This document shows, piece by piece, positions 42,867 through 63,347 of a DNA stretch of 64,000 nucleotides (position 1 is the stretch's first letter; the number at the start of each line of letters is the position of its first letter). Origin of the DNA: Candidatus Woesearchaeota archaeon (GTDB lineage Archaea; Nanobdellota; Nanobdellia; Woesearchaeales; WAPJ01); NCBI GenBank assembly GCA_047602885.1, contig JBLKOQ010000003.1:464-64463 (forward strand), written 5' to 3'. A program made the translations under genes and the position numbers. Under the pieces are notes generated by a model. The model did not search any database and was not told the DNA's origin. It worked only from the letters and a program-made list of their open reading frames with translations.

Positions 42867-43667
42867 CTAAAAATATAAAAATGTAATCAACAGAATTACA
42901 ATTATCACCAAGGAAGGCAGTACAGAATTAAGAATAATAGCCCGTTTGGTTTGGATTATCACTTTCTCTGAAGGTATTACCATAGGGTAGTATTGTTTCC
43001 ATAAGAAGAAATTTTTCTCTAGATATAATATCTTACTGCCTTCTTCTACTCTCACTATTCCTTCAAGCACTAGCTCATCTCCCTTTCTAGCAATAATCTC
43101 AGCATATCTTACTGAGCTTATCATCTTCTTAAAAAAGCCTGCCTCTTGCGACTTTGTTAACTCTCCTTCATCCTTTGGGCTGATGGATAGACTCGAATAA
43201 TTTCTAATCATTGCAGAGATCTGTTTTGCTCCTTCCCTATTGGTCTTGGGATTCCAATAGTAGTATTCCTTATCAGAAACACTCCGTAAGATATGTGGGC
43301 TTACAGTCAATAAGCCTGTATCATCCGATATTATAAATTGATTTACTGGAAAATTTACATCCTGGACTGACCAAGTTAGGCTGCCGCTTCTTGCACCATA
43401 CAATTCGGTTGCCACTGAATACCAAGCGCAAACAGAACCAGATATAGGGCTCTTAAGGCTATTCTCACTCTTTATCCTTCCGCAAACTCTTACTTTATTT
43501 CCTATACTCAGTTCAGATATCTTCTGTATCTTTCTTTTCTTTATAAGAGAATAAACCTTATAGTAAAAAACCACTTGACCCCCTCCAATAATCCAAATTA
43601 TTATAATAATCATTATAATAACATAATAAAATATTGGATTGGATAGCAAGTCGAACGATAGTACCAT
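42867..43667 (-). CDS. Hypothetical membrane protein (N- and C-terminal TM helices).
   Basis: ORF only. Confidence 0.45.
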   Translation of the reverse strand: MVLSFDLLSNPIFYYVIIMIIIIIWIIGGGQVVFYYKVYSLIKKRKIQKISELSIGNKVRVCGRIKSENSLKSPISGSVCAWYSVATELYGARSGSLTWSVQDVNFPVNQFIISDDTGLLTVSPHILRSVSDKEYYYWNPKTNREGAKQISAMIRNYSSLSISPKDEGELTKSQEAGFFKKMISSVRYAEIIARKGDELVLEGIVRVEEGSKILYLEKNFFLWKQYYPMVIPSEKVIIQTKRAIILNSVLPSLVIIVILLITFLYF

Positions 43668-43995
43668 GACTTGACATTATTAGTATTTCATTTATATTCT
43701 TTTGGTTTAGGATTTCTAGTATATGCTAATTAATTTCTTACTATGAAGGATATCTTATTAACCTAGATTCCGATTCCCCAAAAAAATTATGAAGAGAATA
43801 ATTGCTGGGGTAGAATTGCTAGGGCAGATCAAGTGAGAGGGATGACATCTGTTGGGATAAAAGAATATGACTGGATAATAAGATTCCTAAAATAAAAGAA
43901 GACTAAGTATGATTATTTTATAAGGTTATTTATTATGAAAAGGAACCGTATTATGATCATATCAACAATCTCATCACATGAATAGTTCGTTAATA

Positions 43996-44604
43996 TTAAT
44001 AAGAATACCGTCTCTTCATGAATATTAGCACTGCAAAAACAATAAGCAACAAAACTATTATGCCTATCAATAAGGGTACTATAGGATCATTATCACTTAC
44101 AGGAATGATATGAGTATCACATTCTATGCCATAATATTCAGCGCATCCTATACAAAGACCACTACAAGAAGCATCCTTAAGATCAGCATAATATAATAGC
44201 CTGCCACTATCCTCCTCTTTTATCATCAAAGTAGCTATGTCATAAGATATAGGAAGACGGACCAAGAAGTCATATCCTTCAGGCATAATATCCCCTCCCG
44301 AACCATTACCAAAAGAATCATAATGAAGAATATAAGAAGATATTATACTCTGCGAAAGAATCCTGCCAGAATCATCTGACAACGCAAAGATATATCGCTG
44401 ATCTCCAGAACCAAGAGGAGTAGTCTGGGGACGATCAGATATCGATATACTGCCAATAACAACATTCCCATCATTAAAAATGGTACCATCAACATGAAGA
44501 GTCTGACCATAAGCTACAGGCAACAATAATACTAACACCAAACCCCAAATAATATTATGATATCGCACCACAAACCACCAAAGCATTATACATATCAGAC
44601 TCAT
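43996..44604 (-). CDS. Hypothetical surface protein with a C-terminal TM anchor.
   Basis: ORF; N-terminal hydrophobic segment and terminal LLIGIIVLLLIVFAVLIF followed by KRR. Confidence 0.4.
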   Translation of the reverse strand: MSLICIMLWWFVVRYHNIIWGLVLVLLLPVAYGQTLHVDGTIFNDGNVVIGSISISDRPQTTPLGSGDQRYIFALSDDSGRILSQSIISSYILHYDSFGNGSGGDIMPEGYDFLVRLPISYDIATLMIKEEDSGRLLYYADLKDASCSGLCIGCAEYYGIECDTHIIPVSDNDPIVPLLIGIIVLLLIVFAVLIFMKRRYSY

Positions 44605-46435
44605 ACTTCATATAATCATAACCAGCAGGACCAAATACACCATAAGGATCACAATAGTCCATTAAAAAACCCTTATTATACTCGGGATTAGAAAGACAAC
44701 GTTCAAACTCTTCAGGACTACAAGTATAAGGAGGAACCGAACACCTATAATCGATAGGCTCAGTGCATGATGGCTGGCAATCCTGATGATTAACGCCTGA
44801 ACATGCTCCTGCAGGATAATCAGTATCAATCCATTCTTCTCTAGGATTGCAACTAAGATGATGAAGACCAAAAGTATGGCCTGACTCATGAAGAGCTATG
44901 CTGGCAGCATCTTTAGGCGGCGGAAATTCAGCCATGCTTAACCCAACCCTCCCATAAAGCCGTGCGATGCCACTATACAAAACATCTGAGACTAGCTCAC
45001 CACCAGAATAATAATAATACTCCCAAAAATTTGCAGAGAGTCCAATAACCCTATCAACTCTTCCATCAACATTTCTTTCTGCACACTCTAGCGCTTCACT
45101 AAAACAAGATTCAATGTTTCTTTGCCTTTCTGCATTGATAGCAAAACGATTGTTTGCCACTATCGTATACTGGCATTCTTCAATACACTCCATGTCATCC
45201 ACTATAACAAACCTGAATCCTATTTCTTCATGCGTGCACTCTCTTATAGGCAGTTCCTCACGGAAAGCTTGTATGACTTCATATGCCCTCTCTCGGTATA
45301 TAGAATATAAGTATGAAGGATATCCTAATGGAACAATGACAAATGTAAACTCGTTTCCAGACTCATAACAAGCACCCCTAACAGCATCGAATACCAGTCC
45401 TTCACAGCAAGAAGAAGCATCTCCAGCTTTCATACCTAAGGACGCGCATGAGGTCATGCACCCTAGTCCATCCTCTGTTTCAACACAAAAAGGAGTTTCT
45501 TGCATGCATCTTGAAGAGTCTGTACATGATTCAGGCGGCATTACCTCAAGGGTAGGAATATTATCTGGCAATGATACTCTTACTAAAGCGCCTGATTCTG
45601 TAAAGAAAGTAAGCCAGTCCTCATCAAGCACCCAGTTTCCTTGTGACAGCGGCGTTGTATCACCTATAAGCGCATATAATACTGCATCTTCATGATCAGT
45701 TTGTAATATTTCCATAAAGATCTCCCTAACATTATCAGTACCGAATGCTCCATTGGATCCTTGGCGCCTAAGCAGGCCATATCCAGTATGAATATCTTCT
45801 TCGGCATCATACGTTACAACAAAATGGACTGGATGACCCATCACAGTAGGGTTTGGCCCGAATTGGATTGTCTTGATATCTACTATTATTGCTTCAGGAT
45901 CATAAACAGTGAACTGCCCTTCAGCCAATAATACTTGAGTGCCATTATGAAGAGTTCCTATAACCTGATAAGGATATACTCCTACAGTATGAGTCTCCTC
46001 ATATCTGATAGTAAAAGTCCTATTACCCGCTCCCCCACCATCATCTATCACTCTACCGGTAATAATATCTCGGGGCCTTTGAACTGCTATTGCCCCACCC
46101 GTTCCTCCTGGTACTGTTCCTGATGATGGACTGGTAGCATATATACCCGTACTAGCAATTATTCCTTCAAGGTCATCTACTACTACTTCTACAGGGTTTC
46201 CAACAGCCACCCTATCCGGCACACTAACTCTTACTCCACTACCATAAATACTTCCATCAGACAAGGATCCTGGTATTATGTCACAGTCAAGCCCCCTGCA
46301 CTGGAATACTCCAAGAGTATCACCAAATATAGTCATCTGACCAGTAAAAATCAATACTAATACTACCAACACGACTATCACAATAATCGCTATTATTATG
46401 GTGTTTAACGGCAGTCCCTGAGCCTTACGAACCAT
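44555..46435 (-). CDS. Protein with a class III (archaeal type IV pilin-like) signal peptide and a C-terminal metzincin-type zinc metalloprotease motif.
   Basis: N-terminus MVRKAQGLPLNTIIIAIIVIVVLVVLVLIF; C-terminal HESGHTFGLHH, which is the HExxHxxGxxH pattern. Confidence 0.55.
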   Translation of the reverse strand: MVRKAQGLPLNTIIIAIIVIVVLVVLVLIFTGQMTIFGDTLGVFQCRGLDCDIIPGSLSDGSIYGSGVRVSVPDRVAVGNPVEVVVDDLEGIIASTGIYATSPSSGTVPGGTGGAIAVQRPRDIITGRVIDDGGGAGNRTFTIRYEETHTVGVYPYQVIGTLHNGTQVLLAEGQFTVYDPEAIIVDIKTIQFGPNPTVMGHPVHFVVTYDAEEDIHTGYGLLRRQGSNGAFGTDNVREIFMEILQTDHEDAVLYALIGDTTPLSQGNWVLDEDWLTFFTESGALVRVSLPDNIPTLEVMPPESCTDSSRCMQETPFCVETEDGLGCMTSCASLGMKAGDASSCCEGLVFDAVRGACYESGNEFTFVIVPLGYPSYLYSIYRERAYEVIQAFREELPIRECTHEEIGFRFVIVDDMECIEECQYTIVANNRFAINAERQRNIESCFSEALECAERNVDGRVDRVIGLSANFWEYYYYSGGELVSDVLYSGIARLYGRVGLSMAEFPPPKDAASIALHESGHTFGLHHLSCNPREEWIDTDYPAGACSGVNHQDCQPSCTEPIDYRCSVPPYTCSPEEFERCLSNPEYNKGFLMDYCDPYGVFGPAGYDYMKYESDMYNALVVCGAIS

Positions 46436-48723: not shown

Positions 48724-49842
48724 ATGTTGTTATTTAACATCATGGGAAAGGGCTCTACTCAGATTCTTATAAGAAGGATAATAGAATCATTAGCTAAATC
48801 TCCAAAATCATCAAGTGAGATAGCAAGAGAGACAGGGCTTGACAGGACTGCAATATCAAGATACCTGGAAGTACTAAATAAAAGTGGTTTTGTAACAGTA
48901 GAAAAGAAGGGTTCTAGCAAGAGATTCATATTATCATCAAATTATCGTATAGACACTTATTTCGGCCTATCTCTAGACTCTAAGACTGATAGGCTGATTG
49001 ATTCCATATACTATTATATTAGCGAAAGATGGAAAGAGAATAGCAGTAGGAGATTGCTCAAGACTACTGCACAAAAAATAATGTATCAGATAATACATGA
49101 TTGTGATCTCAGCATTCCTAACGGATGGTATATTTATGGGGGTATATGCGTAAAGCCTTATGATGCTAATAGTAGTTATGGTCATCGCAGACTGTCACAG
49201 AGTATAATTAATTGTGTGAATGAGACAGTCACAGAATATTCTAAGAATAAGTTTGAGTATGAGAGCAAACAACTCCAATATAAGAAGGCGGGAAAAGAGC
49301 TCTATTATATCAAAGAGGATATTCTAAAGATACTATATTCTAAGAGTTTTACTAAAAAGTCAATGCATGTACTACAAAAACAGTATGCGAGATTAAGGAA
49401 GATAGTACCTTCAGGAGACGCTTTATATTATGAGATTATTAACGATTATGACACTCTCCTTATAGACATTACAAGAGAATGGGATCATTTTGTGGATGAA
49501 AAGGATGATAGGAATTATGCTGAGTTCAAGCACAAACTAGTTTCTTCATTTGAAGCATTATGGAAGATGATAGCCATGCAAAATTTTAAAGAAGACCTAC
49601 TATTAGGAGGATATTATATGGAAAAAGAGCTCTATGAACATTTCAGGCTTGATATAGCCCAGGCTAAAGAGGATGTTATAGAAATCTGTTCCCTGTTAAA
49701 CGAGATGATACCATCAGAAGAGCCCGATGACCCTGATTATGATGAGTTTAAGAGAATTATTAAGGAAGGCCATAAGCTGCCTAAGAAAGAGCAGGCTAGG
49801 CTGATAGAAAAGCTTAATTCAAAGATTAGGAGAAAATCATAA
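48724..49842 (+). CDS. wHTH-domain protein with a large uncharacterised C-terminal domain.
   Basis: N-terminal MarR/ArsR-like wHTH (SSEIARETGLDRTAISRYLEVLNKSGFVTVEKKG). Confidence 0.5.
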   Translation: MLLFNIMGKGSTQILIRRIIESLAKSPKSSSEIARETGLDRTAISRYLEVLNKSGFVTVEKKGSSKRFILSSNYRIDTYFGLSLDSKTDRLIDSIYYYISERWKENSSRRLLKTTAQKIMYQIIHDCDLSIPNGWYIYGGICVKPYDANSSYGHRRLSQSIINCVNETVTEYSKNKFEYESKQLQYKKAGKELYYIKEDILKILYSKSFTKKSMHVLQKQYARLRKIVPSGDALYYEIINDYDTLLIDITREWDHFVDEKDDRNYAEFKHKLVSSFEALWKMIAMQNFKEDLLLGGYYMEKELYEHFRLDIAQAKEDVIEICSLLNEMIPSEEPDDPDYDEFKRIIKEGHKLPKKEQARLIEKLNSKIRRKS

Positions 49843-50241
49843 TAATTGTTCAGGCTTGATTGTGGGGACTTTTGAATTCTTGAAATCATTCGTGTTTCTT
49901 GTCACAATGTAGTCAGCTTTAGCTCTTCTTGCCAGTATGCAGTGTAGCTCGTCCTGGACATTATTGGGATTCTGGCTTCTTGCCATTTCTTCATCCTCTT
50001 CCGTTTTTCTTACTTTTATGGTTTTCTTTTCGAGTATTTTAAGGAGTATTCTTGCGCTTGAAAGCCTCTTTTTTATTTCCAGCTCTTTTAGCGTCCAGTC
50101 AGATATTATCACATTATGCTCGCATTTTGCAGCCCTGAACAATAATACTCTAGAAGATGCTGATATGTCTTTTCCGAATAAGTTCATAGTATCGTCAAGA
50201 GCATACATTATTATGTTCGTATCAATGTAAAGCCTAGCCAC
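49837..50241 (-). CDS. PIN-domain protein (VapC-like ribonuclease fold).
   Basis: LYIDTNIIMYALDD near the N-terminus and C-terminal DYIVTRNTNDF. GTG start. Confidence 0.7.
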   Translation of the reverse strand: MARLYIDTNIIMYALDDTMNLFGKDISASSRVLLFRAAKCEHNVIISDWTLKELEIKKRLSSARILLKILEKKTIKVRKTEEDEEMARSQNPNNVQDELHCILARRAKADYIVTRNTNDFKNSKVPTIKPEQLL

Positions 50242-50360
50242 TTAACCGCCCTGCAATTACTAGAGAAGCAGAATATGTTATTAATAGTATTAATGTAAAG
50301 AAGTCCAGTGGCATTATAAGAAAGGTATGAGATAATAATCCTTATACGATATGATACTCA

Positions 50361-50903
50361 TTACTCATTAGTATAGTCATACAAGCTCTTATTCTTGGAA
50401 TCCTTCTTATCTAAATCTATTAATTCAGTTTCATCATCAATCTCTATAATATCGCCAAATTTTCTTTTCATCTGCTCTAATAATATTTGTGCAATATCAT
50501 CCTTATGTAATATGAATCCGTCACTTGTCATAAAATAATCATTCCTAAAATCCTGTTCAATAACCTCTTTTCTTGCAAATCTCTTATCAAAATAGTCTAT
50601 TTTTAAAGAGCTCATTATATGGCTTGATGTTCTGCTAATAGATTTTGGCTTAATACCCATCTTATCTGCAAGCCCTTTCTGAGACCATTCCTTATCATTC
50701 TGAGCCAAGTAGTTTATAGTAGAATATACCCATAATAGCCCTCCTGCAATAAACTCTGTTTTAGAATTGGTATAATGTTTTCTTAAACGAAAATAAGCAT
50801 CTATTAGCTTTTCGATGTTCTCCTTATCCTCATCAGTATAAGAGAGTGATAGACCAAATACGATTTCTTTTACCTTATCCCTTTTTTCTTTAAAATCGCT
50901 CAT
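50361..50903 (-). CDS. Hypothetical protein (180 aa) with a possible central HTH.
   Basis: ORF; SQKGLADKMGIKPKSISRTSSHI is HTH-like. Confidence 0.4.
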   Translation of the reverse strand: MSDFKEKRDKVKEIVFGLSLSYTDEDKENIEKLIDAYFRLRKHYTNSKTEFIAGGLLWVYSTINYLAQNDKEWSQKGLADKMGIKPKSISRTSSHIMSSLKIDYFDKRFARKEVIEQDFRNDYFMTSDGFILHKDDIAQILLEQMKRKFGDIIEIDDETELIDLDKKDSKNKSLYDYTNE

Positions 50904-51096
50904 ATGAAATCATCTTTTGTGTTCTTATATACTGGTTATTGTTCTCATATTGTTATGGGTAGGCTTATTTCTCTTTTTATGCCTAAGCTAGAGGATTTAC
51001 AGTCCCGCCGAGGCAGGACCATCCTCTTTACACTTTCATTATTAGTGAATAGAAGGGAGTGGTGATTGTTTATAAGGTTGTTGGGGAATAATCATA

Positions 51097-51819
51097 TTAT
51101 GGAGTCCTAAAGCTCTCTTCATTCACCAGGCTAATTACTCCAATACAAGAATCATTGTATTTTGCAAATTCATGTGGATTACTAATTGTTCTGATTAATG
51201 CGAACCCTTTGATTGGGATATTAGGAAAATGCTTTTTTAGTAAGCTAGCACAACCTTGCATTGTGGACCCTCTTGTAATGACGTCATCTATAAGAAGAAT
51301 GCTTCTTGGCTGATGAACTTGTGGTATTACCTTGATGCTATTGTAATGCTCTGTTGGTTTAGGGCGTTCAGATGAAACGGAGTATGATGATTTTTGCACA
51401 GGAATAAAACGTTGTAAACAAGGATAATAATTCCCAAGACCTTGTTTTGATAGTGCTCGTGCAATCCTGTCAGGAACCCACAAAGTATCTTTTTGCATAA
51501 GATGACTTTTAGGCACAGGAACTAAATCAATATCTTCTCCGAAAAAATCTTTGAAAGGAAAACTCTCAATCTTTGTTTTAATCATCTCTGAGATTAATTC
51601 AGATGTAACTCTTGGAGGATTACCTCTAATTGAGTCACTTTTTACATTATTCATTACATTTTTTGATTTCTTTATCTCCTCATTCTTCTGACCTTCAATG
51701 AATCTTGGACAATACGCGAATAAGGAGCCATATTCAAGATTAGAAAGTAACAAGTTGATTACCCCAAACATCCTCTTGGGTTTCGGATAGTTCTTCTGGG
51801 AGAGAATCCAAAAGGACAC
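51097..51819 (-). CDS. Phosphoribosyltransferase (PRTase) domain protein, ComF/ShosT-like.
   Basis: PRPP-binding loop ILLIDDVITRGSTMQG. The 5' end overlaps the upstream gene by ~80 bp, so the true start is probably the internal Met at 51771 or 51654. Confidence 0.6.
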   Translation of the reverse strand: MSFWILSQKNYPKPKRMFGVINLLLSNLEYGSLFAYCPRFIEGQKNEEIKKSKNVMNNVKSDSIRGNPPRVTSELISEMIKTKIESFPFKDFFGEDIDLVPVPKSHLMQKDTLWVPDRIARALSKQGLGNYYPCLQRFIPVQKSSYSVSSERPKPTEHYNSIKVIPQVHQPRSILLIDDVITRGSTMQGCASLLKKHFPNIPIKGFALIRTISNPHEFAKYNDSCIGVISLVNEESFRTP

Positions 51820-52573
51820 TCAAATCTTTGATGCTTAGGACTTCTGCGCCGTACTTTATTAGTTTGGAAGGCCAGCTCAGATTCTTGTTGTTTGCAAGGT
51901 CTTCTAGGATGAACAGTCTTCTACCAAGCCTTAATGCTTCCCAGCCCTGATGCATTGTTCCGCTCTTATCACTTGCCTCTACTATGACTGATACTCTAGA
52001 TATTAATGCCATAGTCCTGTTTCTTGCCGGAAAGTTTGATGGGAGTATTGGACTTCCTATTCTGAACTGGGATATTAGGAGATGGTTATTTTTTATTGTA
52101 TCTTGTAGCTTACTATTTTCTTTAGGATAGCAAGTGTCAAGAGGCGTTCCTATGACTGCTATCGTGTTTCCTTTGTTTCTTATTGCTGATTCGTGAGCTA
52201 TAGTGTCTATTCCTTTGGCTAGGCCGCTTACTATGATGACATTATTCTTAACCAGGAATTCTGCTATTATTCTGGCATTTTCCATTCCCTTGCTTGTAGG
52301 CTGCCTGGTGCCTATTATTGATATGCTCCTGCTTTTTGATGCCAATGCCTTATTTCCTATAATGTATAATTCCTTAGGGGCAAATTTTTGTTCAATATCA
52401 TTTAGATTGCCGATAAGATTGGATGTTTCTATAGTCTCAATATTGTCATCTGCGCTCATACGTAATACCCTATGCTCTGTATTATCATAAGCAATATTAT
52501 AAGCTTTGTTATACATGCTATTAAGGTCGTTATAAACCGTTAATATAGGTAACATGCACAAGTCCAGTGGCAT
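51740..52573 (-). CDS. DprA/Smf-like Rossmann-fold DNA-processing protein.
   Basis: IIGTRQPTSKGMENARIIAEFLVKNNVIIVSGLAKGIDTIAHESAIRNKGNTIAVIGTPLD matches the DprA core G.R..s.yG......la..La..g..vvSGlA.GIDaaAH. Confidence 0.7.
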   Translation of the reverse strand: MPLDLCMLPILTVYNDLNSMYNKAYNIAYDNTEHRVLRMSADDNIETIETSNLIGNLNDIEQKFAPKELYIIGNKALASKSRSISIIGTRQPTSKGMENARIIAEFLVKNNVIIVSGLAKGIDTIAHESAIRNKGNTIAVIGTPLDTCYPKENSKLQDTIKNNHLLISQFRIGSPILPSNFPARNRTMALISRVSVIVEASDKSGTMHQGWEALRLGRRLFILEDLANNKNLSWPSKLIKYGAEVLSIKDLSVLLDSLPEELSETQEDVWGNQLVTF

Positions 52574-52663: not shown

Positions 52664-53098
52664 ATGGAGCATCCTAATGAGGAAATCATGCGAAAAGCGA
52701 TAGAATATGGCTATACCAATAGAACAGTCGGCTGCATAATAACAAGAGATGATAAGATAATCGCTAAGGCTGGAGGGACGATATTTTCAGATGAGCATGA
52801 TGCCACAGGACACTCTGAAATAAATGCTATTAGGGCTGCATGCAAGAAACTGGGAACTCATGAACTGAAAGATTGCTGGCTGTACACTACTTATGAGCCT
52901 TGCCCTATGTGCATGTCTGCAATCTGCTGGGCAAAAATGGAAGGGGTTGTGTTTGCAGCAAACCATACTGATAGGAATGAGCGTTGGACTTGGGAAATAA
53001 TGATACCTTCTGAAAAGATAGTTGAGAAATCAGAGCACAAGCCAAGAATAATACCTAACTTCTTAAGAGAAGAATCATTGAAGATACTAAGATTATGA
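52664..53098 (+). CDS. Cytidine/deoxycytidylate deaminase-fold zinc deaminase (TadA/guanine-deaminase-like).
   Basis: H-x-E ...PCxxC zinc ligands (HSEINAIRAA, EPCPMCMSAI). Confidence 0.8.
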   Translation: MEHPNEEIMRKAIEYGYTNRTVGCIITRDDKIIAKAGGTIFSDEHDATGHSEINAIRAACKKLGTHELKDCWLYTTYEPCPMCMSAICWAKMEGVVFAANHTDRNERWTWEIMIPSEKIVEKSEHKPRIIPNFLREESLKILRL

Positions 53099-53118: not shown

Positions 53119-53700
53119 TTACAGCTTTCTCCATTCCGGCTTTACATGTACTGGAGTATTTAAAGGAATGAATTCTATTTGTTTTTTCTTAGTATCTAAA
53201 ATTGTTACTCCGTTAGGATAAGTTCCATTAGATACTGGAGGGCAGAATATGATGTTTATGTCATTGTTTAAGCCTATTTTCTTGAAACCTGTCTCTGTTA
53301 GGGTGTTATCCTTGTAGTGCATTATTCTGTGGTCATGGCCATGAATGCTTATTTGACAATTATGCTTTTTCATCATGCTTATATGGTTTTTGAAGTCTTT
53401 TTTGTTTTTAGGCTCTGATGTAAGTTGATCCTGCATTGTCAGGATATATGAAGTGGGATAAGAGGACGTTAATGCCATCATAGCTCTTTATGGCGTATTC
53501 TTTTAGTTTGGAGAGGTAGCTCTTTTCATTACTGTTTATTAAAGGGCTAAGTTCTGTTTCTTCATAAAGATAAACCCTGTTTTTTGAAAGCTTTCTTCTT
53601 ATTTCATAATCCAGGCCATACCAGTTCTTAGGATAGACGAAATTGGCCTTATTGTTAGGAAGCTTTCTTATCGCGTAAAGGTCGTGGTTGCCTATAAGTA
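53119..53700 (-). pseudogene. Degraded MJ0936/YfcE-family metallophosphoesterase, N-terminally truncated and frameshifted.
   Basis: Upstream frame 53700-53470 encodes KVLIGNHD (motif III) with an in-frame stop just 5' and no motifs I/II. A second frame (ORF 53119-53481) encodes HGHDH and IFCPPVSNG, which resemble the GHTH and NPGS motifs. The frame switches near 53440-53480. Confidence 0.45.
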
Positions 53701-53702
53701 CT

Positions 53703-54467
53703 TTATTTATCTTTCTTTAATAAATTGTGTTCAATGATTTTAATTTGACTCTTGTTTAGATGATACTGCTTTTTTCCTTTAATTAAATATATGAACTCTG
53801 CATTCTTCAAAAGCTTGCCTTTAATTTTGGTCCCATCAAGAAAAGTGACAGTTACGATTGGAAAATGTGACTTTGACGAACCAAGTACCATTGCGGCATA
53901 TGATAAGTTTACAAAAGTAAGTATCAACACAACAAAAAATCGGTAACTGTTTGTTGATTGAAAAAATGATACTGTTGCATAAATTAGAAAAGTACATATT
54001 AAAAAAACAAGAAATTGATTTTCTAAAGTTCTAAAAAGCTTTGAATAAAAATTATTGTTCATAGAGATATTTTTCTCAACATCCATTTGTTCCGTAACAT
54101 ATGATTTATTTGATTTTTTTAACTCAGTTAGTTTTTTTCTTAATGTTTTATTATATAATTGTTGTATATTAAAAATCTGAATTTCTTTATAATACTTATA
54201 TTTTGAGTAAAACCCGAATAAAACTATCTGAATTGCAATGACTAATAAAAAATTAATTTTATAATTAAGGGTACTAAAAAAATATAGAGCTAAAGACAAA
54301 GGTACAAGAATGTATGAGAGTACAAAGTAAAAGCCTGTAACCAACATACTGTAGTAATCAAAGCTCTGAACTTTCGTATCAGCAATAATTCTCCCAAAAT
54401 AATAAAAACATGCTGATATAATAATGAGAAATGCTGACAAATTACCTATTATACTTGCGATTTCCAT
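53703..54467 (-). CDS. Hypothetical polytopic membrane protein (254 aa) downstream of the Type I RM operon.
   Basis: ORF; N-terminal multi-TM region, central helical region and C-terminal soluble segment. Confidence 0.45.
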   Translation of the reverse strand: MEIASIIGNLSAFLIIISACFYYFGRIIADTKVQSFDYYSMLVTGFYFVLSYILVPLSLALYFFSTLNYKINFLLVIAIQIVLFGFYSKYKYYKEIQIFNIQQLYNKTLRKKLTELKKSNKSYVTEQMDVEKNISMNNNFYSKLFRTLENQFLVFLICTFLIYATVSFFQSTNSYRFFVVLILTFVNLSYAAMVLGSSKSHFPIVTVTFLDGTKIKGKLLKNAEFIYLIKGKKQYHLNKSQIKIIEHNLLKKDK

Positions 54468-54479
54468 CTTAATTATCTC

Positions 54480-54818
54480 TTAACTTAAGTTACTAGCACC
54501 CCAAATTATAACTAAACCTGTAATTATTGATGAAGCTATCTTCCCTGCAGTGTAATAACTTTCAAACAGTTTAAATTTGAATGTATAGCTTATAATTCCA
54601 ACTACACCTAATAATGTCACAATGTTTGTGTATAAAATAATAATAGGAGGTACAATCTCATAAATACCAAAGAATGTTACAAGTGCAATAGCATTAGCAA
54701 ACATTGTAACTCTTCCCGTATAATGTTTCTCAACTAAATAACCAATTAGAATCAAAGACAAAGGTGCTAACAAATGAAAAAACGAATAAGGTAATAAATC
54801 CAGAAGCCAAATATTCAT
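54480..54818 (-). CDS. Hypothetical small membrane protein (112 aa).
   Basis: ORF with 3-4 TM helices; overlaps the hsdS stop by 4 bp. Confidence 0.4.
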   Translation of the reverse strand: MNIWLLDLLPYSFFHLLAPLSLILIGYLVEKHYTGRVTMFANAIALVTFFGIYEIVPPIIILYTNIVTLLGVVGIISYTFKFKLFESYYTAGKIASSIITGLVIIWGASNLS

Positions 54819-56281
54819 GATTCCACCTCAAAAGCTTCCCTTAAAATAGTATTCATCAATGCTTCAGAATTCTTTTGATTTTCCTTAATTCGAGATTCAA
54901 GTTGAACGAAAACATCCATAAGTTGATCGATTTTTTGGACAATTCTCTTTTGTTCTTCCAAAGGGGGAAGAGGGACTATACAGTTCTTAATGGTTCCAGT
55001 GCCAAGTTCTGTTTGCTTAGTACTACCAGTTACTTTAAGATTATCTTGTACATACTTAGAAGATAGCCAAGATAGAACAAATTTATTATACACCAAATCA
55101 TTAACAACTCTAACTATAGTAACATGGGAGTCTACAACTACTCGCTTGTATAGATGTTTTTCATTGTATTCGCATATTCTCCCTATTGTTCCATCGCCAG
55201 TAGAATTCCATAATAAATCTCCACTGATTACGAAACGAATATCTTCATACTTATGTATCGATTGAGGATCAATATATCTTACTTTATTAATGTAAAATCC
55301 ATTCCACTGAACACATTTCTGAGAAATCACAGGATAATCGCTAATCTCTGTGTACTTAGGAGATCTTCCCCTTTGAATGTAACTACTAATATCTCCCAAT
55401 CTCACCCATTCCCATCCTTTCGGTAATTCATAAGGAAGTTCTTCTTTAGATATCAGAGGTAATGGTTTTTCTTTTCTTATCTTCTTTTCTTTTACTAACA
55501 GTTCTTTTTCTTTCTTTATTTTTTGTAGCAGAACTGATGCTGGTTCATCATTAGGATCTTGTGGAACAAGCTTTCCTTCAACTGCTTCAGAAAGGATTGC
55601 TTGACGAAGCTTTGAAACGAATTTTGTGTTCTTTTGTGTAATTGATGATATTAAACTAAGTTTCTCTGATAAAAAATGTACTTTAATAATTTCTCGCTCA
55701 ATTTCTTGATCAAAATACTTCATTGTTTTTAAAGATTCACTAAAAAAATCATCAAGGAAGTTGACTATTCTTAATTGTAACTCTTTATCTTTGCAAAAAA
55801 TAATCTGCTCCTTTAGTAGATATTTGTAATGTCTGCTATACCCTCTTTCTTCAACAGTCAAACCTTTCAATTGATAATAAAAGAATCTTGCATTAAAGAT
55901 ATTTTTAGGCTTTAGTATTTTTACTCCATCAGCCCCTTGAGCGAAATCAAAATCTACATATTTAATTGATTTTGTATGGTCTCCGAAAATTATAAAGGGA
56001 CCATGTATTATTTTTGCATCCTCGTTATTTGTGTAGCCAGCAATAAAACTCTTTCCTTGATCAATTATAGGAATTTTTCCTTTAATGAGATAATCTTTTT
56101 TTTGTATTTTAGAAGGTATTCTGAAGTTTAATCTATCTAACGAATTATTGACAGATATTTTAACTCCAAAATTATTATCCAAGAGGTACTCATTTATTAA
56201 CGCAATATAAGTTTTAATATTACTCATAAATAATAAGTTTTTCATCTTAAAGTTCCTTCTTGATTTGTTCAAGTAGCTCAA
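54815..56281 (-). CDS. hsdS: Type I restriction-modification specificity subunit HsdS.
   Basis: Two target-recognition domains separated by conserved coiled-coil repeats. Overlaps the hsdM 3' end; the true start may be the Met at ~56245. Confidence 0.8.
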   Translation of the reverse strand: MSYLNKSRRNFKMKNLLFMSNIKTYIALINEYLLDNNFGVKISVNNSLDRLNFRIPSKIQKKDYLIKGKIPIIDQGKSFIAGYTNNEDAKIIHGPFIIFGDHTKSIKYVDFDFAQGADGVKILKPKNIFNARFFYYQLKGLTVEERGYSRHYKYLLKEQIIFCKDKELQLRIVNFLDDFFSESLKTMKYFDQEIEREIIKVHFLSEKLSLISSITQKNTKFVSKLRQAILSEAVEGKLVPQDPNDEPASVLLQKIKKEKELLVKEKKIRKEKPLPLISKEELPYELPKGWEWVRLGDISSYIQRGRSPKYTEISDYPVISQKCVQWNGFYINKVRYIDPQSIHKYEDIRFVISGDLLWNSTGDGTIGRICEYNEKHLYKRVVVDSHVTIVRVVNDLVYNKFVLSWLSSKYVQDNLKVTGSTKQTELGTGTIKNCIVPLPPLEEQKRIVQKIDQLMDVFVQLESRIKENQKNSEALMNTILREAFEVES

Positions 56282-57674
56282 TGTTTTCTTTCATTGATTT
56301 TTCTAAAATATCAATGATTTCCTTACTTGACATATGCTCAGTTTCATCTATGTTATTTGGATTGTTAATGTCCAGGTTATAGTTTCTCTTCTTTATTTCA
56401 TCTATACTGACTTTCCAACAGTATTGCTTAAATTCGTCATTCTCTCTGTCCTTCCACCATCTTTTCTCTAAATCAAACTCTTCAATTCGCATTGGTCTAG
56501 TTTTATTGTATGTTTTGTATCCATCAGGAAGAGGATGTTCAAAATACCATATTTCCTTAGTTGGTTTTCCTTTTTCAAAGAATAATAAGTTTGTTCTTAT
56601 TGAAGTATAAGGATTAAACACACCATTAGGCAGCCTGACTATAGTATGTAAATTGAATTCATCCAGCAATTTTTCTTTAATCCTAGTCTTAACACCTTCT
56701 CCAAATAGAAACCCATCAGGAAGTACTATTCCACACCTACCTTCATCACGTAACAATTCCATTATCAACACCAAGAATAGATCTGCAGTTTCTCTTGTTC
56801 TAAATGATGCTGGAAAGTTATTCTCTATACCTACTTCTTCAGCACCTCCAAAAGGAGGATTTGTTACAACTATATCTACCATATCTGAAGGTCCAATATC
56901 TCTTATAGGTCTACTGAGAGAATTATCATGTCTGATATCAGGTAATTCAATATCATGCAATATCAGATTTGTAGTTGCTAATAGATGAGGTAACGGTTTC
57001 TTTTCTATACCTCTAAGACATTTCTCCAACTTTTCTCTTTCATCTACAGTATTAACTGATTTTTTTAAGTTCTCCAAGCTTGAAATAAGAAATCCTCCTG
57101 TACCACATGCAGGATCTAGTATTAGTTCACCTAATTTTGGATCAATAATATCAACTATGAACTGAGTTACAGCCCTTGGAGTATAATATTCTCCCGCATT
57201 ACCTGCACTTTGTAAATCTCTTAATATCTGCTCATATATATCATTAAATGTGTGCCTATCAGCAGTCGTATGAAAATCGACTTCATTTAACTTGTTAATT
57301 ACCTGTCTAATTAACGCTCCGTGTTTCATATAATTATAAGCATCTCTAAATAATTCTCGTACAAGAATCGCTTTCTTATCATCTTCATTAGCTTCTAGAT
57401 TTTTTAACTTAGGAAATAAAACATTATTAATGAATTCAAGCAAATCTTCACCAGTTATTCCTTCATCATCCGTAGCCCAACTTCTCCATCTGAGGTTCTC
57501 AGGTATAGGTGATTTATAATTATCATCTTCTAGCTCCCATTCTTCTTCTTTCGCATCAAAGACTTTTAGAAATATCATCCAAACTAATTGAGAAATTCTT
57601 TGTGCATCTCCATCTACTCCAGAATCCTTTCTCATTATATCCTGTATTGATTTTATTATTGTTGACAAACTCAT
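56247..57674 (-). CDS. hsdM: Type I restriction-modification N6-adenine methyltransferase subunit HsdM.
   Basis: HsdM N-terminal domain (ISQLVWMIFLKVFD), motif I LDPACGTGGFL and motif IV NPPFG. Confidence 0.9.
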   Translation of the reverse strand: MSLSTIIKSIQDIMRKDSGVDGDAQRISQLVWMIFLKVFDAKEEEWELEDDNYKSPIPENLRWRSWATDDEGITGEDLLEFINNVLFPKLKNLEANEDDKKAILVRELFRDAYNYMKHGALIRQVINKLNEVDFHTTADRHTFNDIYEQILRDLQSAGNAGEYYTPRAVTQFIVDIIDPKLGELILDPACGTGGFLISSLENLKKSVNTVDEREKLEKCLRGIEKKPLPHLLATTNLILHDIELPDIRHDNSLSRPIRDIGPSDMVDIVVTNPPFGGAEEVGIENNFPASFRTRETADLFLVLIMELLRDEGRCGIVLPDGFLFGEGVKTRIKEKLLDEFNLHTIVRLPNGVFNPYTSIRTNLLFFEKGKPTKEIWYFEHPLPDGYKTYNKTRPMRIEEFDLEKRWWKDRENDEFKQYCWKVSIDEIKKRNYNLDINNPNNIDETEHMSSKEIIDILEKSMKENIELLEQIKKEL

Positions 57675-57676
57675 TC

Positions 57677-60022
57677 TTAAGCCTCCGCATATAATTGTTC
57701 TTCCAATTCTCTTATTGCTTCAATATAACCTTTCTTTCCTCCAAAGTATTTTACAATCTCAAAAGGAGTGCCTAAATCTCTTAGAGGGTTTACTTTTAGT
57801 ACATTTAAGCTTTCAAGGTCTAGGATGCCTTCATCAGCGTATTTGTCCAAAAGAGCATCAAGTACTACTCTAGCTTTTTCTCCATACTTAGAGAAGTAAT
57901 TCTTTTTCTTTACATTCTTTGCCCTCTCCTGTCTAGTGAGAGGTTTCTTATCAAAAGCAACATGGCATATTAGGTCAAAAGGATCATAATCTCTTCCAAC
58001 TTCTCTTTGAAGTTCATCTAATAGTATGCCTTGCTCTTCTAATTTCTCTATAATAATAGACTTTTTAGTTGAATCATTCCAATCCTTCAAAAATTTACTA
58101 AGAGTCTTATACTCTTGATAAAGAGTTTTCTTTGTAAAATCTTGAAGACTTTCTGTTATCAGTCTCCCTTCACTATCATAAAACAATACCCTCTGATTAA
58201 TTACTTTAACAGGAACTCCTTTGACATAGTATTTTCTAGGTCTTTCTTTAGTATCTTTAATAAAGACTTGTTCTTGTTTAGTTAAACCATACTTGTCCTC
58301 CTTATCTTTTATAGCCTCAGGAATATCTATTTTCTTATTAGGGGGAACTTCATATATTTGAACTGGTTCTCCGTCAAAGTCTGGATCGGCGAACAAATCT
58401 GTAACTTGTCTAAAATCCATTATAGTGAAATAGTACTTCCCATAATCTTCTCTAATTCTTGTACCTCTTCCGATTATTTGTTTAAACTCAGTCATTGATT
58501 GAATGTTAGAATCTAATACTATTAGTTTGCATGTTTGTGCATCTACCCCTGTATTCATCAATTTAGAAGTTGTTACTATAACAGGATATTTAGTCTTAGG
58601 ACTAATAAAATTATCTAATTCTTTTTTACCTAAATCATCATCACCAGTAATTTTCATAACATATTTGGAATTTTTCTTAATTAAATCATAATTCTCGTTC
58701 CTTAATTCTAATCTCATTCTCTCAGCATGATCAATGTCTACACAAAAAACTATAGTTTTAGCGTATCTATCCCCTGAATTTTTAAGGTATTCTGTAATTT
58801 TTTTCGCCACGGTTTCTGTTCTTTCATCAATTGCAAGATTTCGATCAAAGTCTTTAGAATTATAAACACGATCTTCTACAGCGTACCCATATTTATCTTT
58901 TTGTCCTCTACTTGGACGCCATCCTTCAACATCTCTATCTAATGAAATCTTCACAACTTTATAGGGTGCTAAAAATCCATCCTCAATACCTTGTTTTAAA
59001 GAATAAGTATATATTGGTTCACCAAAATAATCTATATTTGAAATATGCTTTGTTTCTTTTGGTGTTGCAGTTAGACCTATTTGTGTTGCTGACTCAAAGT
59101 ACTCTAATATTTCTCTCCAAGCAGAATCTTCTTTAGCGCTTCCTCTATGACACTCATCAACAACTATTAAATCAAAGAAATCTTTTGAGAACTGTTTATA
59201 TATGTTCTTCCAATCATCATTTCCAGACAATCCTTGATATAAAGCCATATAAACTTCATAAGATTTGTCAACTTTTCTATTTGTGATTTTCTTCATTGCG
59301 CCACTGAATATTTTAAAATCATTATTCATAGTTTGATCAACAAGAATGTTTCGATCTGCGAGAAATAAAATTCTTTTTTTGCTTTTTGATTTCCATAACT
59401 TATATATGATTTGAGATGCAACATATGTTTTTCCTGTTCCTGTGGCCATGACTAACAAAACTCTTTCCTGACCTTTAGCTATGTTTTCTACGGCTCTATT
59501 AATTGCAACTTCTTGATAATAACGGGGAGACTTTCCGGTTTGGGAAGTATGATAATTATGCGTTATGATACTTTCATGTTCTTCTTCTATTCCCTTCCAT
59601 ATCTTGTATCTATTCCACAACTCTTCTGGAGAAGGAAATTCATCAAGTAAAAGCTCCCTTTCAATGTATTTTCCTTTACCTGTTCTATCGTGTTCTATAA
59701 AACCATCACCGTTAGAACTGTAAACAAAAGGTATGTCCAAAATCTCTCCATAACTAATCGCTTGCTGTAAACCTGAACCTATTGTATGTTTATTGTCCTT
59801 AGCTTCAATTACTGCAATAGGCATATTTGGTTTATAATACAGGATATAATCTGCTCTTTTTCTTTCACCACGAATAATTCTTTTTCCTCTAACTATTATT
59901 TTACCATCAGTAAATGTTCTCTCTTCTCTAATCTGCTTATCTTTATCCCAGCCGGACTTTAAAATAGCAGGAGTTATGTATTTCGTACATATATCCCGTT
60001 CGGATAGATCTTTCAGATTCAT
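57677..60022 (-). CDS. hsdR: Type I restriction enzyme R subunit HsdR.
   Basis: HSDR_N region ([18 protein letters not shown]...ADYILYY...IEAKD), SF2 helicase motifs ([13 protein letters not shown]) and helicase C-domain motifs. 781 aa, at the short end for HsdR. Confidence 0.85.
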
Positions 60023-60813: not shown

Positions 60814-62271
60814 ATGAGCATCTTAGATAGGCTTTTTAAACTGGTTCGAAAAGAGAAACTTCCGAAAGAAATTGATGAAGATAATTCTTTAGCATCAGAT
60901 GATAAGGAAAACGATACTGATTCGATAGAAGATTATGAATATCCTGAGGTTCTAGAAGAATTAGACAATGGACAAAAATCAGCAGTAACAACTAATCATA
61001 AAAGAACACTGGTACTTGCAGGAGCAGGAGCAGGAAAAACTAGAGTATTAATACACAGGATACTCCATCTCATAATGAACTGCAAAGTCAATTCTGGAAA
61101 TATACTTGCGGTTACTTTTACAAGAGATGCCACTTATGAAATGAAAGATAGGCTAATATCTCATTTCGAGCCAGAATATTTCGATAAAATTAAAGAGATT
61201 AAAGATAATTATGAAACTTATAAGTTTAAAACAACAATGCAATATAAGCATCCTGAAATAAGAAACTTGGATGTTAAAACAATTCATTCGCTGTGTTATC
61301 AAATATTGAGACTAGATGGCGCAAAAGTATTCAATACGAATTTTCAAGTAATAGGCGACGAAGACAAGAAAACCGATGACACTCAAAAAGGAATATCACA
61401 ACAGAAAATAATAAAAAATATAATTTTTGAGATAGGTAATGAAAATCCAGACTATTTAGAAAAAGTTAAGAAATTCATATATGATTATCTGGTAGATTAT
61501 GAGAAAATTACTCTAGCAAAATTAAGCATTTCGCCAGGTAAATATATGACTTTAGATGGAAAAGAAGTGAGGTCCAAATCTGAACGAGATATAGCCAATT
61601 TCCTAATTCAACACAACATCAAATACGATTATGAACGAGAAGCTACATGGGTAACAAAATCAGATCAAAACAAAAGATATCATCCTGATTTCTATTTACC
61701 TGAATATGACATATACATTGAACATTGGGCAGTAACCTCTTCTGAAGATGCAACAGACAAGAACTTTGAACAAACATTTGATAAGGAAAAATATCTTGCA
61801 GAAAGAAAATGGAAAATTAGCCAGTTTAAAAAACATAATAAAAAGCTAATAGAATCATCTGAAAAACAAATGCGCGGCAATCTAAACGATTATCATCAAT
61901 GGTTATACGGAGAAATCTTCAGACTTACTAATGGAGCCATTAAATTCAATCAAACTTCAAATTTCATTTTAGAGGACAAACGCATGACAGAAGGATTGAT
62001 TTTACTAATCAGAAGTTTCATGAAAATAATTAATCTAGCAAAATCTAATAGAGTATCTGAAGAAACAATAAAGACCAATCTGAAAAAAGAGAAACATGAA
62101 GAGATACTAGAATTCTATGATATATTCTTAACTACATTTGGTGCTTATGAGGAATTCCTTATAAGGAAAAGCCTAATTGACTATAACGACATGATACATA
62201 AAGTTATCGATTTGTTCAATGTAGATAAAAAAATATTATTAAAATACCAAAAAAATATAAGCATATACTAG
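60814..62271 (+). CDS. UvrD/PcrA-family SF1 helicase, N-terminal fragment. It has a Walker A, motif Ia and an embedded PD-(D/E)XK (DUF559/Vsr-like) nuclease-type insert, and ends at a frameshift.
   Basis: GAGAGKTRVLIHR (motif I), ILAVTFTRDATYEM (Ia). The insert reads SKSERDIANFLIQHNIKYDYE...YHPDFYLPEYDIYIEHW, resembling the E...DF...IE.DG.H core of DUF559-type endonucleases. Confidence 0.65.
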   Translation: MSILDRLFKLVRKEKLPKEIDEDNSLASDDKENDTDSIEDYEYPEVLEELDNGQKSAVTTNHKRTLVLAGAGAGKTRVLIHRILHLIMNCKVNSGNILAVTFTRDATYEMKDRLISHFEPEYFDKIKEIKDNYETYKFKTTMQYKHPEIRNLDVKTIHSLCYQILRLDGAKVFNTNFQVIGDEDKKTDDTQKGISQQKIIKNIIFEIGNENPDYLEKVKKFIYDYLVDYEKITLAKLSISPGKYMTLDGKEVRSKSERDIANFLIQHNIKYDYEREATWVTKSDQNKRYHPDFYLPEYDIYIEHWAVTSSEDATDKNFEQTFDKEKYLAERKWKISQFKKHNKKLIESSEKQMRGNLNDYHQWLYGEIFRLTNGAIKFNQTSNFILEDKRMTEGLILLIRSFMKIINLAKSNRVSEETIKTNLKKEKHEEILEFYDIFLTTFGAYEEFLIRKSLIDYNDMIHKVIDLFNVDKKILLKYQKNISIY

Positions 62272-62321: not shown

Positions 62322-63347
62322 TTGCTCTGCAAAGATAACTCTTTATTTGCAGTAGGAGATGATTGGCAAAGCATATATGGTTTTCGAGGTTCCGAAGTCG
62401 AATTCATTGTTAATTTTAATGAAACATTCAAAGATAGTAATGTTATAGTACTTCCATATAACTATCGTTCCGGCAAAAATATCGTTGACGCTTCAAATAT
62501 CGTAATAATGAAAAATCCTAATCAGATCAATAAACACATAAAAGCGTTCTATGAGAATAAAGACGAAAAGATCTTCCAATATAATGCATTAAATGACATT
62601 GATAGTGCTAATTTCATAATAGATGTTACAAAAAAACACTATGCAGAAGGGTATGAATACAATGATATCCTTCTTCTTTACAGAAGAAGCAGGCATATAT
62701 ATCCGTATAAGGAATACTTCAAGAAGCACAATTTTAAGATTAACACCAAAACAATACATGGCTCAAAAGGATTAGAAGCCAAAATAGTTTTCTTAATCGG
62801 AATGACTACAGATGGATTTCCTTTTGTTTGGGAAGATTCGAGAGTAATACAAGTAATAAAGAAAACAGACTTACTAAGAAAAGAAGAGGAAGAAAGAAGA
62901 ATCTTTTACGTTGCAATGACTCGAGCTCAAGAAAGACTTATATTACTATCGGAAAAGAATAATGAATCATCATATTGTTCAGATATACCTTCAGATTTCA
63001 AGAAAGTCAAAGTATCAAAACAAGAGTTTACCGAAGAAATGCTCAGCCCTAAATTAAGAGGCATACTACAAAGATTGGAAGACGGACAAAATCCAGATGA
63101 AATATCAATAGATTTAGATGAAGAACAAACAAATGTTGAAAAATATATAGCCAGATTAATAGAAATGGGGCTTGTTGATGTTAAGAAATTTGTTAATGAA
63201 AAAAATTATGCACTGATTGCTTCTGAAATACCATCTGATGAACAAAGTCCAAGGCTAAACCCAATTAAAAGAGCTCTACCAAAAAGTATAAGCTATGGTG
63301 AAATAAGGTACGTTATAGCCGATTGGAAACACAAACAGAAAGAATAG
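62322..63347 (+). CDS. UvrD/PcrA-family helicase, C-terminal fragment (motifs II-VI) with a C-terminal winged-helix-like tail. Same gene as 60814-62271.
   Basis: In this frame the sequence upstream of the annotated start reads KHILVDEYQDVSSAQVEL (motif II DEYQD). Then GDDWQSIYGFRGSEV (III), HGSKGLEAK (V-like) and VAMTRAQERLILL (VI). The ORF caller starts at a TTG. Confidence 0.65.
   Translation: MLCKDNSLFAVGDDWQSIYGFRGSEVEFIVNFNETFKDSNVIVLPYNYRSGKNIVDASNIVIMKNPNQINKHIKAFYENKDEKIFQYNALNDIDSANFIIDVTKKHYAEGYEYNDILLLYRRSRHIYPYKEYFKKHNFKINTKTIHGSKGLEAKIVFLIGMTTDGFPFVWEDSRVIQVIKKTDLLRKEEEERRIFYVAMTRAQERLILLSEKNNESSYCSDIPSDFKKVKVSKQEFTEEMLSPKLRGILQRLEDGQNPDEISIDLDEEQTNVEKYIARLIEMGLVDVKKFVNEKNYALIASEIPSDEQSPRLNPIKRALPKSISYGEIRYVIADWKHKQKE

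Follow-up and report, generated by a model that had tools for sequence, protein, structure and literature searches.

The 64,000-nt stretch of DNA analysed here (the window; positions 464 to 64,463 of contig JBLKOQ010000003.1 from a Candidatus Woesearchaeota archaeon) contains, on its minus strand, a gene for a DprA-fold protein directly upstream of a gene for a phosphoribosyltransferase (PRTase) with a phosphoribosyl pyrophosphate (PRPP) loop. The products are named 'DNA-processing protein DprA' (258 aa) and 'phosphoribosyltransferase' (218 aa) by NCBI. The anatomy of the pair, its conservation, the conservation of its active site and its genetic context indicate that it is probably a self-contained two-gene toxin-antitoxin or abortive-infection module of the ShosTA family, in a minimal and mainly archaeal form.

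In PADLOC, the DprA-like protein matches the ShosA model PDLC03961 (1.1e-73, 246 bits) and the PRTase matches the ShosT model PDLC03962 (2.7e-26, 91 bits, profile positions 30-223 of 237). The competence models of NCBIfam both fail their cut-offs, with 164.5 bits against 191.15 for dprA (TIGR00732) and 30.2 bits against 233.55 for comF (TIGR00201), which is the best NCBIfam match of the PRTase and extends over ~110 residues. No ComEC, ComEA, ComFA or pilus genes were found among 40 open reading frames (ORFs) of the window scanned against Pfam. An earlier note on this DNA, made from the letters alone, had favoured a ShosTA-like module over a competence function and had proposed a comparison with the ShosT/ShosA and ComFC/DprA families. 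This comparison places the pair with ShosTA, and no bona fide competence match accompanied by com genes was seen among the ORFs scanned. The lack of a zinc finger and the plasmid and phage relatives described below point the same way.

The reference for the family is ShosTA of E. coli APEC O1 and KTE181 (Rousset 2022, Millman 2022, Pu 2025, Yang 2026). The E. coli locus was located via a cargo-specific stretch of the APEC O1 insert cloned by Rousset; the start of that insert is a conserved P2 portal gene that matches 1399 records. In this locus (L085) the gene for ShosA (327 aa) precedes that for ShosT (424 aa), which is the gene order of the window. The E. coli pair scores 765 and 973 bits with the narrow PADLOC models PDLC02997 and PDLC03012, and 285 and 180 bits with the broad models PDLC03961 and PDLC03962. 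Because the broad models score the E. coli and window pairs alike, they bridge the long and short forms. The narrow ShosA model gives only 79 bits with the window DprA-like protein.

The PRTase gene predicts a single-domain protein of 218 aa with no pyrophosphatase domain. The PRPP-binding loop that the earlier note had read in it is present (Table 1), and Pfam recognizes only this region, through generic PRTase models (Pribosyltran, E=0.003, under the gathering score). In an alignment of 33 homologues (A1), K60, P101, P103, S105, W114, R137, K143, R152, D179, T182 and G184 do not vary, conservation at D178 and T186 is 90% or more, and the TRGST / TxGxT loop motif is conserved. The four-cysteine zinc finger of ComFC is absent, as the N-terminal 80 residues contain only one Cys and the family alignment has no conserved Cys pairs. 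All salvage-PRTase cut-offs lie far above the scores obtained. The AlphaFold2 (AF2) model of the PRTase has a pLDDT of 90.7. A Foldseek search of viral structures returned nothing significant.

A link to E. coli ShosT is provided by the PRTase of Pseudomonas phage Riah, which matches the archaeal PRTase profile (hhalign probability 96.7%, 126 columns) and is collinear with residues 213-367 of E. coli ShosT (E=0.002). Through Riah, K143 would correspond to ShosT K280, R152 to R285 and D178/D179 to D331/D332; the loop with the acidic pair also aligns directly with ShosT 324-350. K280 and R285 are residues of the ShosT flexible loop that are required for toxicity.

The DprA/Smf Rossmann core reported for the upstream gene was recovered, with SGLAKGIDTIAHESA at 52184-52228 and a match to Pfam DNA_processg_A (PF02481) of 4.2e-56. 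The longest ORF (52573..51740) encodes 277 aa and the NCBI start at 52516 (Met20) gives 258 aa. The most likely start is Met39 (52459), where the homologues begin in the family alignment (A2). The first ATG (52573) reads AAA in the closest relative locus (L001), and hence is not conserved there. In the AF2 model (pLDDT 88) residues 1-40 and 260-277 have low confidence, the latter corresponding to an acidic tail of ~18 residues that ends in ...LVTF. The DprA domain begins ~19 residues past Met39, and there is no SAM domain at the N-terminus. Alignment with E. coli ShosA by hhalign has a probability of 99.6% but covers E. coli residues 107-306 only. R90 aligns with the ssDNA-binding (single-stranded DNA-binding) residue R139 of ShosA and R184 with R234; neither arginine varies within the family.

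The most likely start of the PRTase is TTG 51753, and the overlap with the upstream gene is then 14 nt. Most of the 33 homologues start with 'MLLSxLEFGS' at the position of this codon, the NCBI gene call is likewise 218 aa, and residues 1-20 of the longer ORF have low model confidence (10-residue block means of 48 and 56, followed by a block of 90). An SD-like (Shine-Dalgarno-like) GGGGT lies 7 nt upstream of the TTG, and both are also present in L001. It is the agreement between the family alignment, the NCBI call, the model confidence and the SD-like GGGGT that supports the TTG start and thus the 14-nt overlap. An overlap of ~80 bp, or of ~30 bp from an internal Met, had been given in the earlier note; these figures hold at the level of the ORF (80 nt from GTG 51819 and 32 nt from ATG 51771) but probably not for the gene.

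The dual coding of these 14 nt implies translational coupling. The same overlap, NTG-CTN-CTT-TCT-GA, occurs in 11 of the 71 intact pairs, in the window and at 10 other loci (e.g. L002, L003, L009, L039 and L062), among them pairs from Planctomycetota and Methanosarcinales, and the PRTase start lies between -12 and +20 nt from the upstream stop in all 71. Its nucleotides encode the last residue of the DprA-like protein, a conserved Phe, as well as the conserved Met-Leu-Leu-Ser with which the PRTase begins, and therefore the conservation of each protein end may partly be imposed by the other gene.

In a scan of one genome per species, 80 loci were detected, with neighbours identified by hidden Markov model searches of six-frame ORFs. 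They are overwhelmingly archaeal (Nanoarchaeota/Woesearchaeota, Aenigmatarchaeota, Bathyarchaeia, Nitrososphaerota, Methanosarcinales and Thermoplasmata). A bacterial minority comes from Planctomycetota, Acidobacteriota, Myxococcota, a deltaproteobacterium, Eubacteriales and a member of the candidate phyla radiation (CPR). The pairing of a DprA-like gene with a PRTase gene, as read in the window by the earlier note, was found there as described and is retained widely: the DprA-like gene is directly upstream and on the same strand in 75 of the 80 loci, four of the others being contig edges and one an orphan. With the pattern used, the family was present in roughly 170 of ~186,000 species genomes, a sporadic distribution. 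An exhaustive profile search at E<=1e-30 gave 874 PRTase clusters at 50% identity, and the best 150 representatives are all 155-243 aa long. Truncated or frameshifted copies of the PRTase or DprA-like gene were seen in L017, L056, L059, L063, L065 and L075, which suggests that the cassette decays recurrently. Comparison of the window with L001, at a dS of ~1, gives dN/dS values of 0.106 (DprA-like gene) and 0.135 (PRTase gene); both genes are under purifying selection.

Neighbours within ~5 kb were clustered across 82 loci and no conserved third gene was found. Besides the pair and antisense shadow ORFs inside it, the neighbour clusters were small (at most 8 loci). The deaminase, DUF6398, PIN and helix-turn-helix (HTH) genes near the window pair are therefore not considered part of the system; the deaminase in particular is absent beside the pair in other loci. 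Some copies are carried by mobile elements. A Paracoccus plasmid copy has repA/parA on one side and an AIPR gene on the other, and an AbiEii-family toxin gene follows ~4 kb later; an Allochromatium plasmid copy adjoins repB, and the Riah copy is at the end of a temperate phage genome. Among 148 nearest neighbours pooled from 37 loci there were scattered genes for Avs2, viperin, a type I restriction endonuclease, defence-type helicases, PIN proteins, MNT-type nucleotidyltransferases and integrases. These lie among metabolic genes, and as the scan had no control set it says nothing about enrichment.

How such a pair could work is suggested by experiments on the E. coli system. ShosT (424 aa) has an N-terminal HAD-like pyrophosphatase domain (1-164) and a PRTase domain (165-424), while ShosA combines a SAM domain (1-94) and a DprA Rossmann domain with a C-terminal tail that is unstable (PMC11961720; PMC12961424). 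ShosT binds PRPP and is toxic alone; D331/D332 and R285 are essential for this toxicity, which is abolished in a D331A/D332A mutant, and ShosA, which binds ssDNA and RecA, neutralises ShosT without binding it (PMC11961720; PMC12961424). The pyrophosphatase domain is accessory, as R56A lowers toxicity marginally (PMC11961720), the SAM domain is needed for the stability of ShosA (PMC12961424), and the C-terminal tail confers instability on it (PMC11961720).

If the toxicity, its neutralisation, the trigger and the recombinase partner carry over from E. coli to the window pair, the PRTase would be the toxin, binding PRPP and transferring phosphoribose to an acceptor, and this transfer would disturb nucleotide metabolism and damage or stall the genome. 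The DprA-like protein would act as a type IV-like antitoxin that need not bind the toxin; it would bind ssDNA and have the damage repaired by the recombinase that it recruits, which in archaea is RadA. A virus that shuts off host expression, or that floods the cell with ssDNA or ssDNA-binding protein, would cause a labile or titrated antitoxin to fail, leaving the toxin to kill or arrest the cell. With the antitoxin gene first and the start of the toxin gene overlapping it, the toxin would never be made without the antitoxin.

A number of observations weigh against assignment to ShosTA. The window PRTase is not matched by the E. coli-type ShosT model PDLC03012, and the archaeal PRTase profile meets E. 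coli ShosT only in the PRPP loop (segment 324-350). PDB sequence searches with the PRTase and with its family profile found generic PRPP-loop matches but neither ShosT nor ComFC, so that a direct sequence match to the solved ShosT chains is lacking. In Foldseek the PRTase model is closest to H. pylori ComF (7p0h; 1.9e-5, TMq 0.44), with ShosT (8zvc; 1.5e-4, TMq 0.50) second and hypoxanthine-guanine PRTases behind; ComF thus ranks over ShosT, although both matches are weak (TM 0.44-0.50). The DprA-like protein is at least as near to competence DprAs as to ShosA, both in sequence (33% identity to S. pneumoniae DprA, which scores above ShosA) and in structure (3uqz DprA, 7e-20; 8zva ShosA, 1.4e-16). 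The third ssDNA-binding arginine of ShosA, R261, aligns with the invariant W211, with R215 and R218 nearby. The toxin candidate has 218 aa and no pyrophosphatase domain where ShosT has 424 aa, and the antitoxin candidate has ~239 aa and no SAM domain where ShosA has 327 aa. Archaea use RadA and not RecA, and the RecA partner is essential in E. coli. Many loci sit among ordinary metabolic genes. The orphan L048, on a Nitrosopumilus sp. chromosome (OZ250186.1), has an intact-looking PRTase (238 bits) at ~6015 and no DprA-like gene or remnant in its 12.6-kb locus. No other of the 80 loci is a true orphan, and this one fits a strict toxin-antitoxin model poorly unless its PRTase is inactive or protected in trans. 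The literature searched contains no experiment on the short DprA-PRTase form, including the plasmid and Riah pairs.

Four other interpretations were weighed. A distinct, mainly archaeal, RecA-independent system, possibly ancestral to both bacterial ShosTA and the ComFC-DprA partnership, is an unlikely explanation but one to be kept in sight. In such a system the DprA-like protein might work with RadA or counteract the toxin otherwise, either by acting directly on the product of the PRTase through its SLOG fold or by forming a complex with the toxin, and the acceptor substrate of the PRTase might differ from that of E. coli ShosT. A sensor-effector pair, first suggested by Rousset et al. 2022 (PMC9122126), is slightly less likely again. 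In this model the DprA-like protein would serve as the detector of viral ssDNA or replication intermediates, and would itself switch on a PRTase that is otherwise inactive. The DprA fold with its conserved ssDNA-binding arginines is compatible with this, a complex would be in line with the strict pairing and the translational coupling, the regulatory logic of short proteins without the extra E. coli domains could differ, and an orphan PRTase is tolerated in the L048 genome. In E. coli, however, ShosT is toxic alone and ShosA neutralises it without binding (PMC11961720, PMC12961424), a shosA deletion was not transformable, possibly through toxicity according to its authors (bioRxiv 10.1101/2022.05.11.491447), and an antitoxin gene in first place is typical of toxin-antitoxin modules.

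A DNA-uptake or processing pair, in which the PRTase is a ComFC-like ssDNA handler and the DprA-like protein loads recombinase on incoming DNA, is improbable. It has in its favour the top structural match and the best NCBIfam match of the PRTase, as well as the similarity of the DprA-like protein to competence DprAs. These are offset by the shortfalls of both competence models (30 vs 234 bits and 164 vs 191 bits), the missing four-cysteine zinc finger, the lack of uptake genes among the window ORFs scanned, and a sporadic distribution that includes plasmid, phage and degraded copies. To our knowledge, bacterial comFC and dprA do not normally form an overlapping two-gene cassette either. A nucleobase-salvage pair, made up of a genuine salvage PRTase and a SLOG/LOG-like nucleotide-processing enzyme, is the most improbable of all. 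It could help DPANN archaea that are unable to make nucleotides de novo, the pair is present in reduced DPANN and CPR genomes, and some loci lie among metabolic genes. The DprA fold belongs to the SLOG superfamily, and the DprA-like protein matches LDcluster4 at 2e-5, under the gathering score, and LOG enzymes in Foldseek at ~1e-6. The DprA-specific profile is nevertheless far stronger (190 bits), the LOG motif PGGxGTxxE is not intact and reads DKSGTMHQGWEA, the PRTase is far from any salvage assignment, and sporadic occurrence with plasmid and phage copies is unlike a core salvage function. A minimal ShosTA-family module accordingly remains the preferred interpretation.

Upstream of the pair, the segment from 52460 to the end of the longest DprA-like ORF is a probable leader and promoter region (Table 1). 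The window has two copies of the 14-mer ATGCCACTGGACTT and no others, both on the minus strand: one at 52560-52573, 114 nt ahead of the likely start of the DprA-like gene, and one at 50301-50314, 60 nt ahead of the start of the PIN gene. In L001, CCACTGGACTT (6878-6889) is also 114 nt from the DprA-like start. The two copies of ATGCCACTGGACTT bracket the DprA-PRTase-DUF6398 block and may represent a shared operator or regulatory site.

Table 1. Features of the DprA-PRTase gene pair and of its surroundings, numbered from the first letter of the window
Feature	Position	Strand	Remarks
ShosT-like toxin candidate, single-domain phosphoribosyltransferase	51097..51753	-	218 aa from TTG 51753
Alternative PRTase starts	ATG 51771; GTG 51819	-	GTG 51819 is the ORF start (240 aa, 51819..51097)
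PRPP-binding loop ILLIDDVITRGST	51262..51300	-	acidic pair D178/D179
Gene junction	51740..51765	-	SD-like GGGGT 51761-51765, 7-nt spacer, TTG 51751-51753, DprA-like TAA stop 51740-51742
ShosA-like antitoxin candidate, single-domain DprA (Rossmann/SLOG) fold	51740..52459	-	239 aa from Met39
Probable leader and promoter of the pair	52460..52573	-	conserved with L001, same distance from start codon
TATA-like element AAAGCTTATAATATT	52493-52507	-	
Conserved motif CCACTGGACTT	52560-52570	-	
PIN gene	49837-50241		
Small CDA-fold deaminase	52664-53098	+	divergently transcribed from the pair
Type I restriction-modification operon, hsdR-M-S	54815-60022		complete

The contig is chromosomal, as it carries gyrA, scpB and other housekeeping genes. 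The pair is flanked on one side by the type I restriction-modification (R-M) operon and two unannotated membrane-protein genes, and on the other by DUF6398, PIN, an ArsR-type HTH gene and peptidase M3. The defence context proposed in the earlier note is largely as described, with R-M, PIN and deaminase genes all in the window (Table 1); the flanking insertion sequence genes are not, since no transposase was found among the 40 ORFs scanned against Pfam. L001 has the same order of R-M, pair and peptidase M3, with HEPN, DUF7557 and ParE genes in place of the intervening genes of the window, which indicates that the flanks are in flux. Relative to L001 (8360-8450), DUF6398, PIN and the 372-aa ArsR-type HTH gene are inserted between the pair and peptidase M3 (window 49837-50903 and 48724-49842). 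The peptidase M3 and hsdM genes of L001 are fragmented.

The deaminase is TadA-like, falls under every NCBIfam cut-off and weakly matches an anti-phage dCTP deaminase model. Adjoining the R-M operon, a UvrD/PcrA-like helicase is split over two ORFs (60814-62271 and 62322-63347, +). The first also matches PADLOC models of the PD-(D/E)XK type (PDC-S69, HEAT_CxxC_PDDEXK) and the N-terminus of GajB, and the two could represent one gene that has been disrupted or a defence gene of the nuclease-helicase type. Several ORFs had no match in Pfam, NCBIfam or PADLOC. In the interval between the pair and R-M (53119-54818, -) these are a 120-aa ORF and two that predict membrane proteins of 254 and 112 aa; three more, of 266, 202 and 626 aa, are located upstream of the peptidase M3 gene (42867-46435, -). 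A G+C-rich hairpin, AGTCCTGCC-TC-GGCGGGACT (51001-51020, -), lies ~80 nt 3' of the PRTase stop in an A+T-rich spacer; it is not followed by a T-run and has no match in Rfam. Over the whole segment scanned with Rfam (48.5-54.6 kb) no match rose above noise, and hence there is no RNA antitoxin or retron non-coding RNA; the window contains no tRNAs. A retron-associated PRTase effector was considered and rejected, with a PRTase_III-A match of only E=0.005, no Rfam family in this segment and no reverse transcriptase among the neighbours.

DefenseFinder-based surveys report that ShosTA is widespread in archaea, ranks among their most frequent defence systems and is commoner there than in bacteria (bioRxiv 10.1101/2024.10.26.620412; PMC11291487), and standard defence-finding tools would label the window locus ShosTA. 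On both grounds the locus is a further member of a known system, and the outcome for the window is mainly a correct annotation, as a defence or toxin-antitoxin cassette rather than competence genes. The label used in the archaeal surveys would take in forms like the window pair. ShosTA has been studied only in E. coli, where its mechanism depends on the fused pyrophosphatase, the SAM domain and RecA. The minimal-pair family is large (at least 874 clusters at 50% identity), lacks all three, and is mainly archaeal, including DPANN with reduced genomes. It bears on which parts of the E. coli mechanism are essential and on whether a DprA-fold protein can cooperate with RadA.

Among known systems, ComFC and DprA cooperate on ssDNA in bacterial natural transformation, and share with the window pair a ComF-like PRTase fold (7p0h) and a DprA fold. 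They differ in the zinc finger and com operon context, which the window pair lacks, and the window pair, far under the competence cut-offs, is a mobile, sporadic and overlapping cassette. PsyrTA / RqlHI also combines a DprA-like antitoxin (the PsyrA model matches the window protein at 3.6e-27) with a PRTase-domain toxin, but its toxin PsyrT is a large fusion of a RecQ-like helicase and a PRTase. A helicase is lacking in the window PRTase, which matches only the last ~45 positions of PsyrT (E=0.003), and PsyrTA was rejected as an assignment.

E. coli ShosTA likewise unites two genes in a cassette, the gene for the DprA-like protein immediately preceding that for the PRTase, and both window proteins match the same broad PADLOC models as its products. 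Shared features include the acidic pair of the PRPP loop, a DprA Rossmann fold with equivalents of R139 and R234, a C-terminal tail on the A protein, predicted to be disordered in the window, and a defence or mobile-element context. Apart from the differences in length, domain content, recombinase and the R261 position given above, the window genes overlap by 14 nt whereas those of E. coli are separated by a 1-nt gap. The bacterial plasmid and Riah pairs have only ~30% identity to the window pair and bacterial hosts, and the Riah DprA-like protein is longer (311 aa), covering ShosA profile positions 22-295 of 303 compared with 65-287 for the window protein. In architecture they resemble the window pair: their PRTase is single-domain and 201-216 aa long, the genes come in the same order and overlap or nearly abut, and the same PADLOC models are matched.

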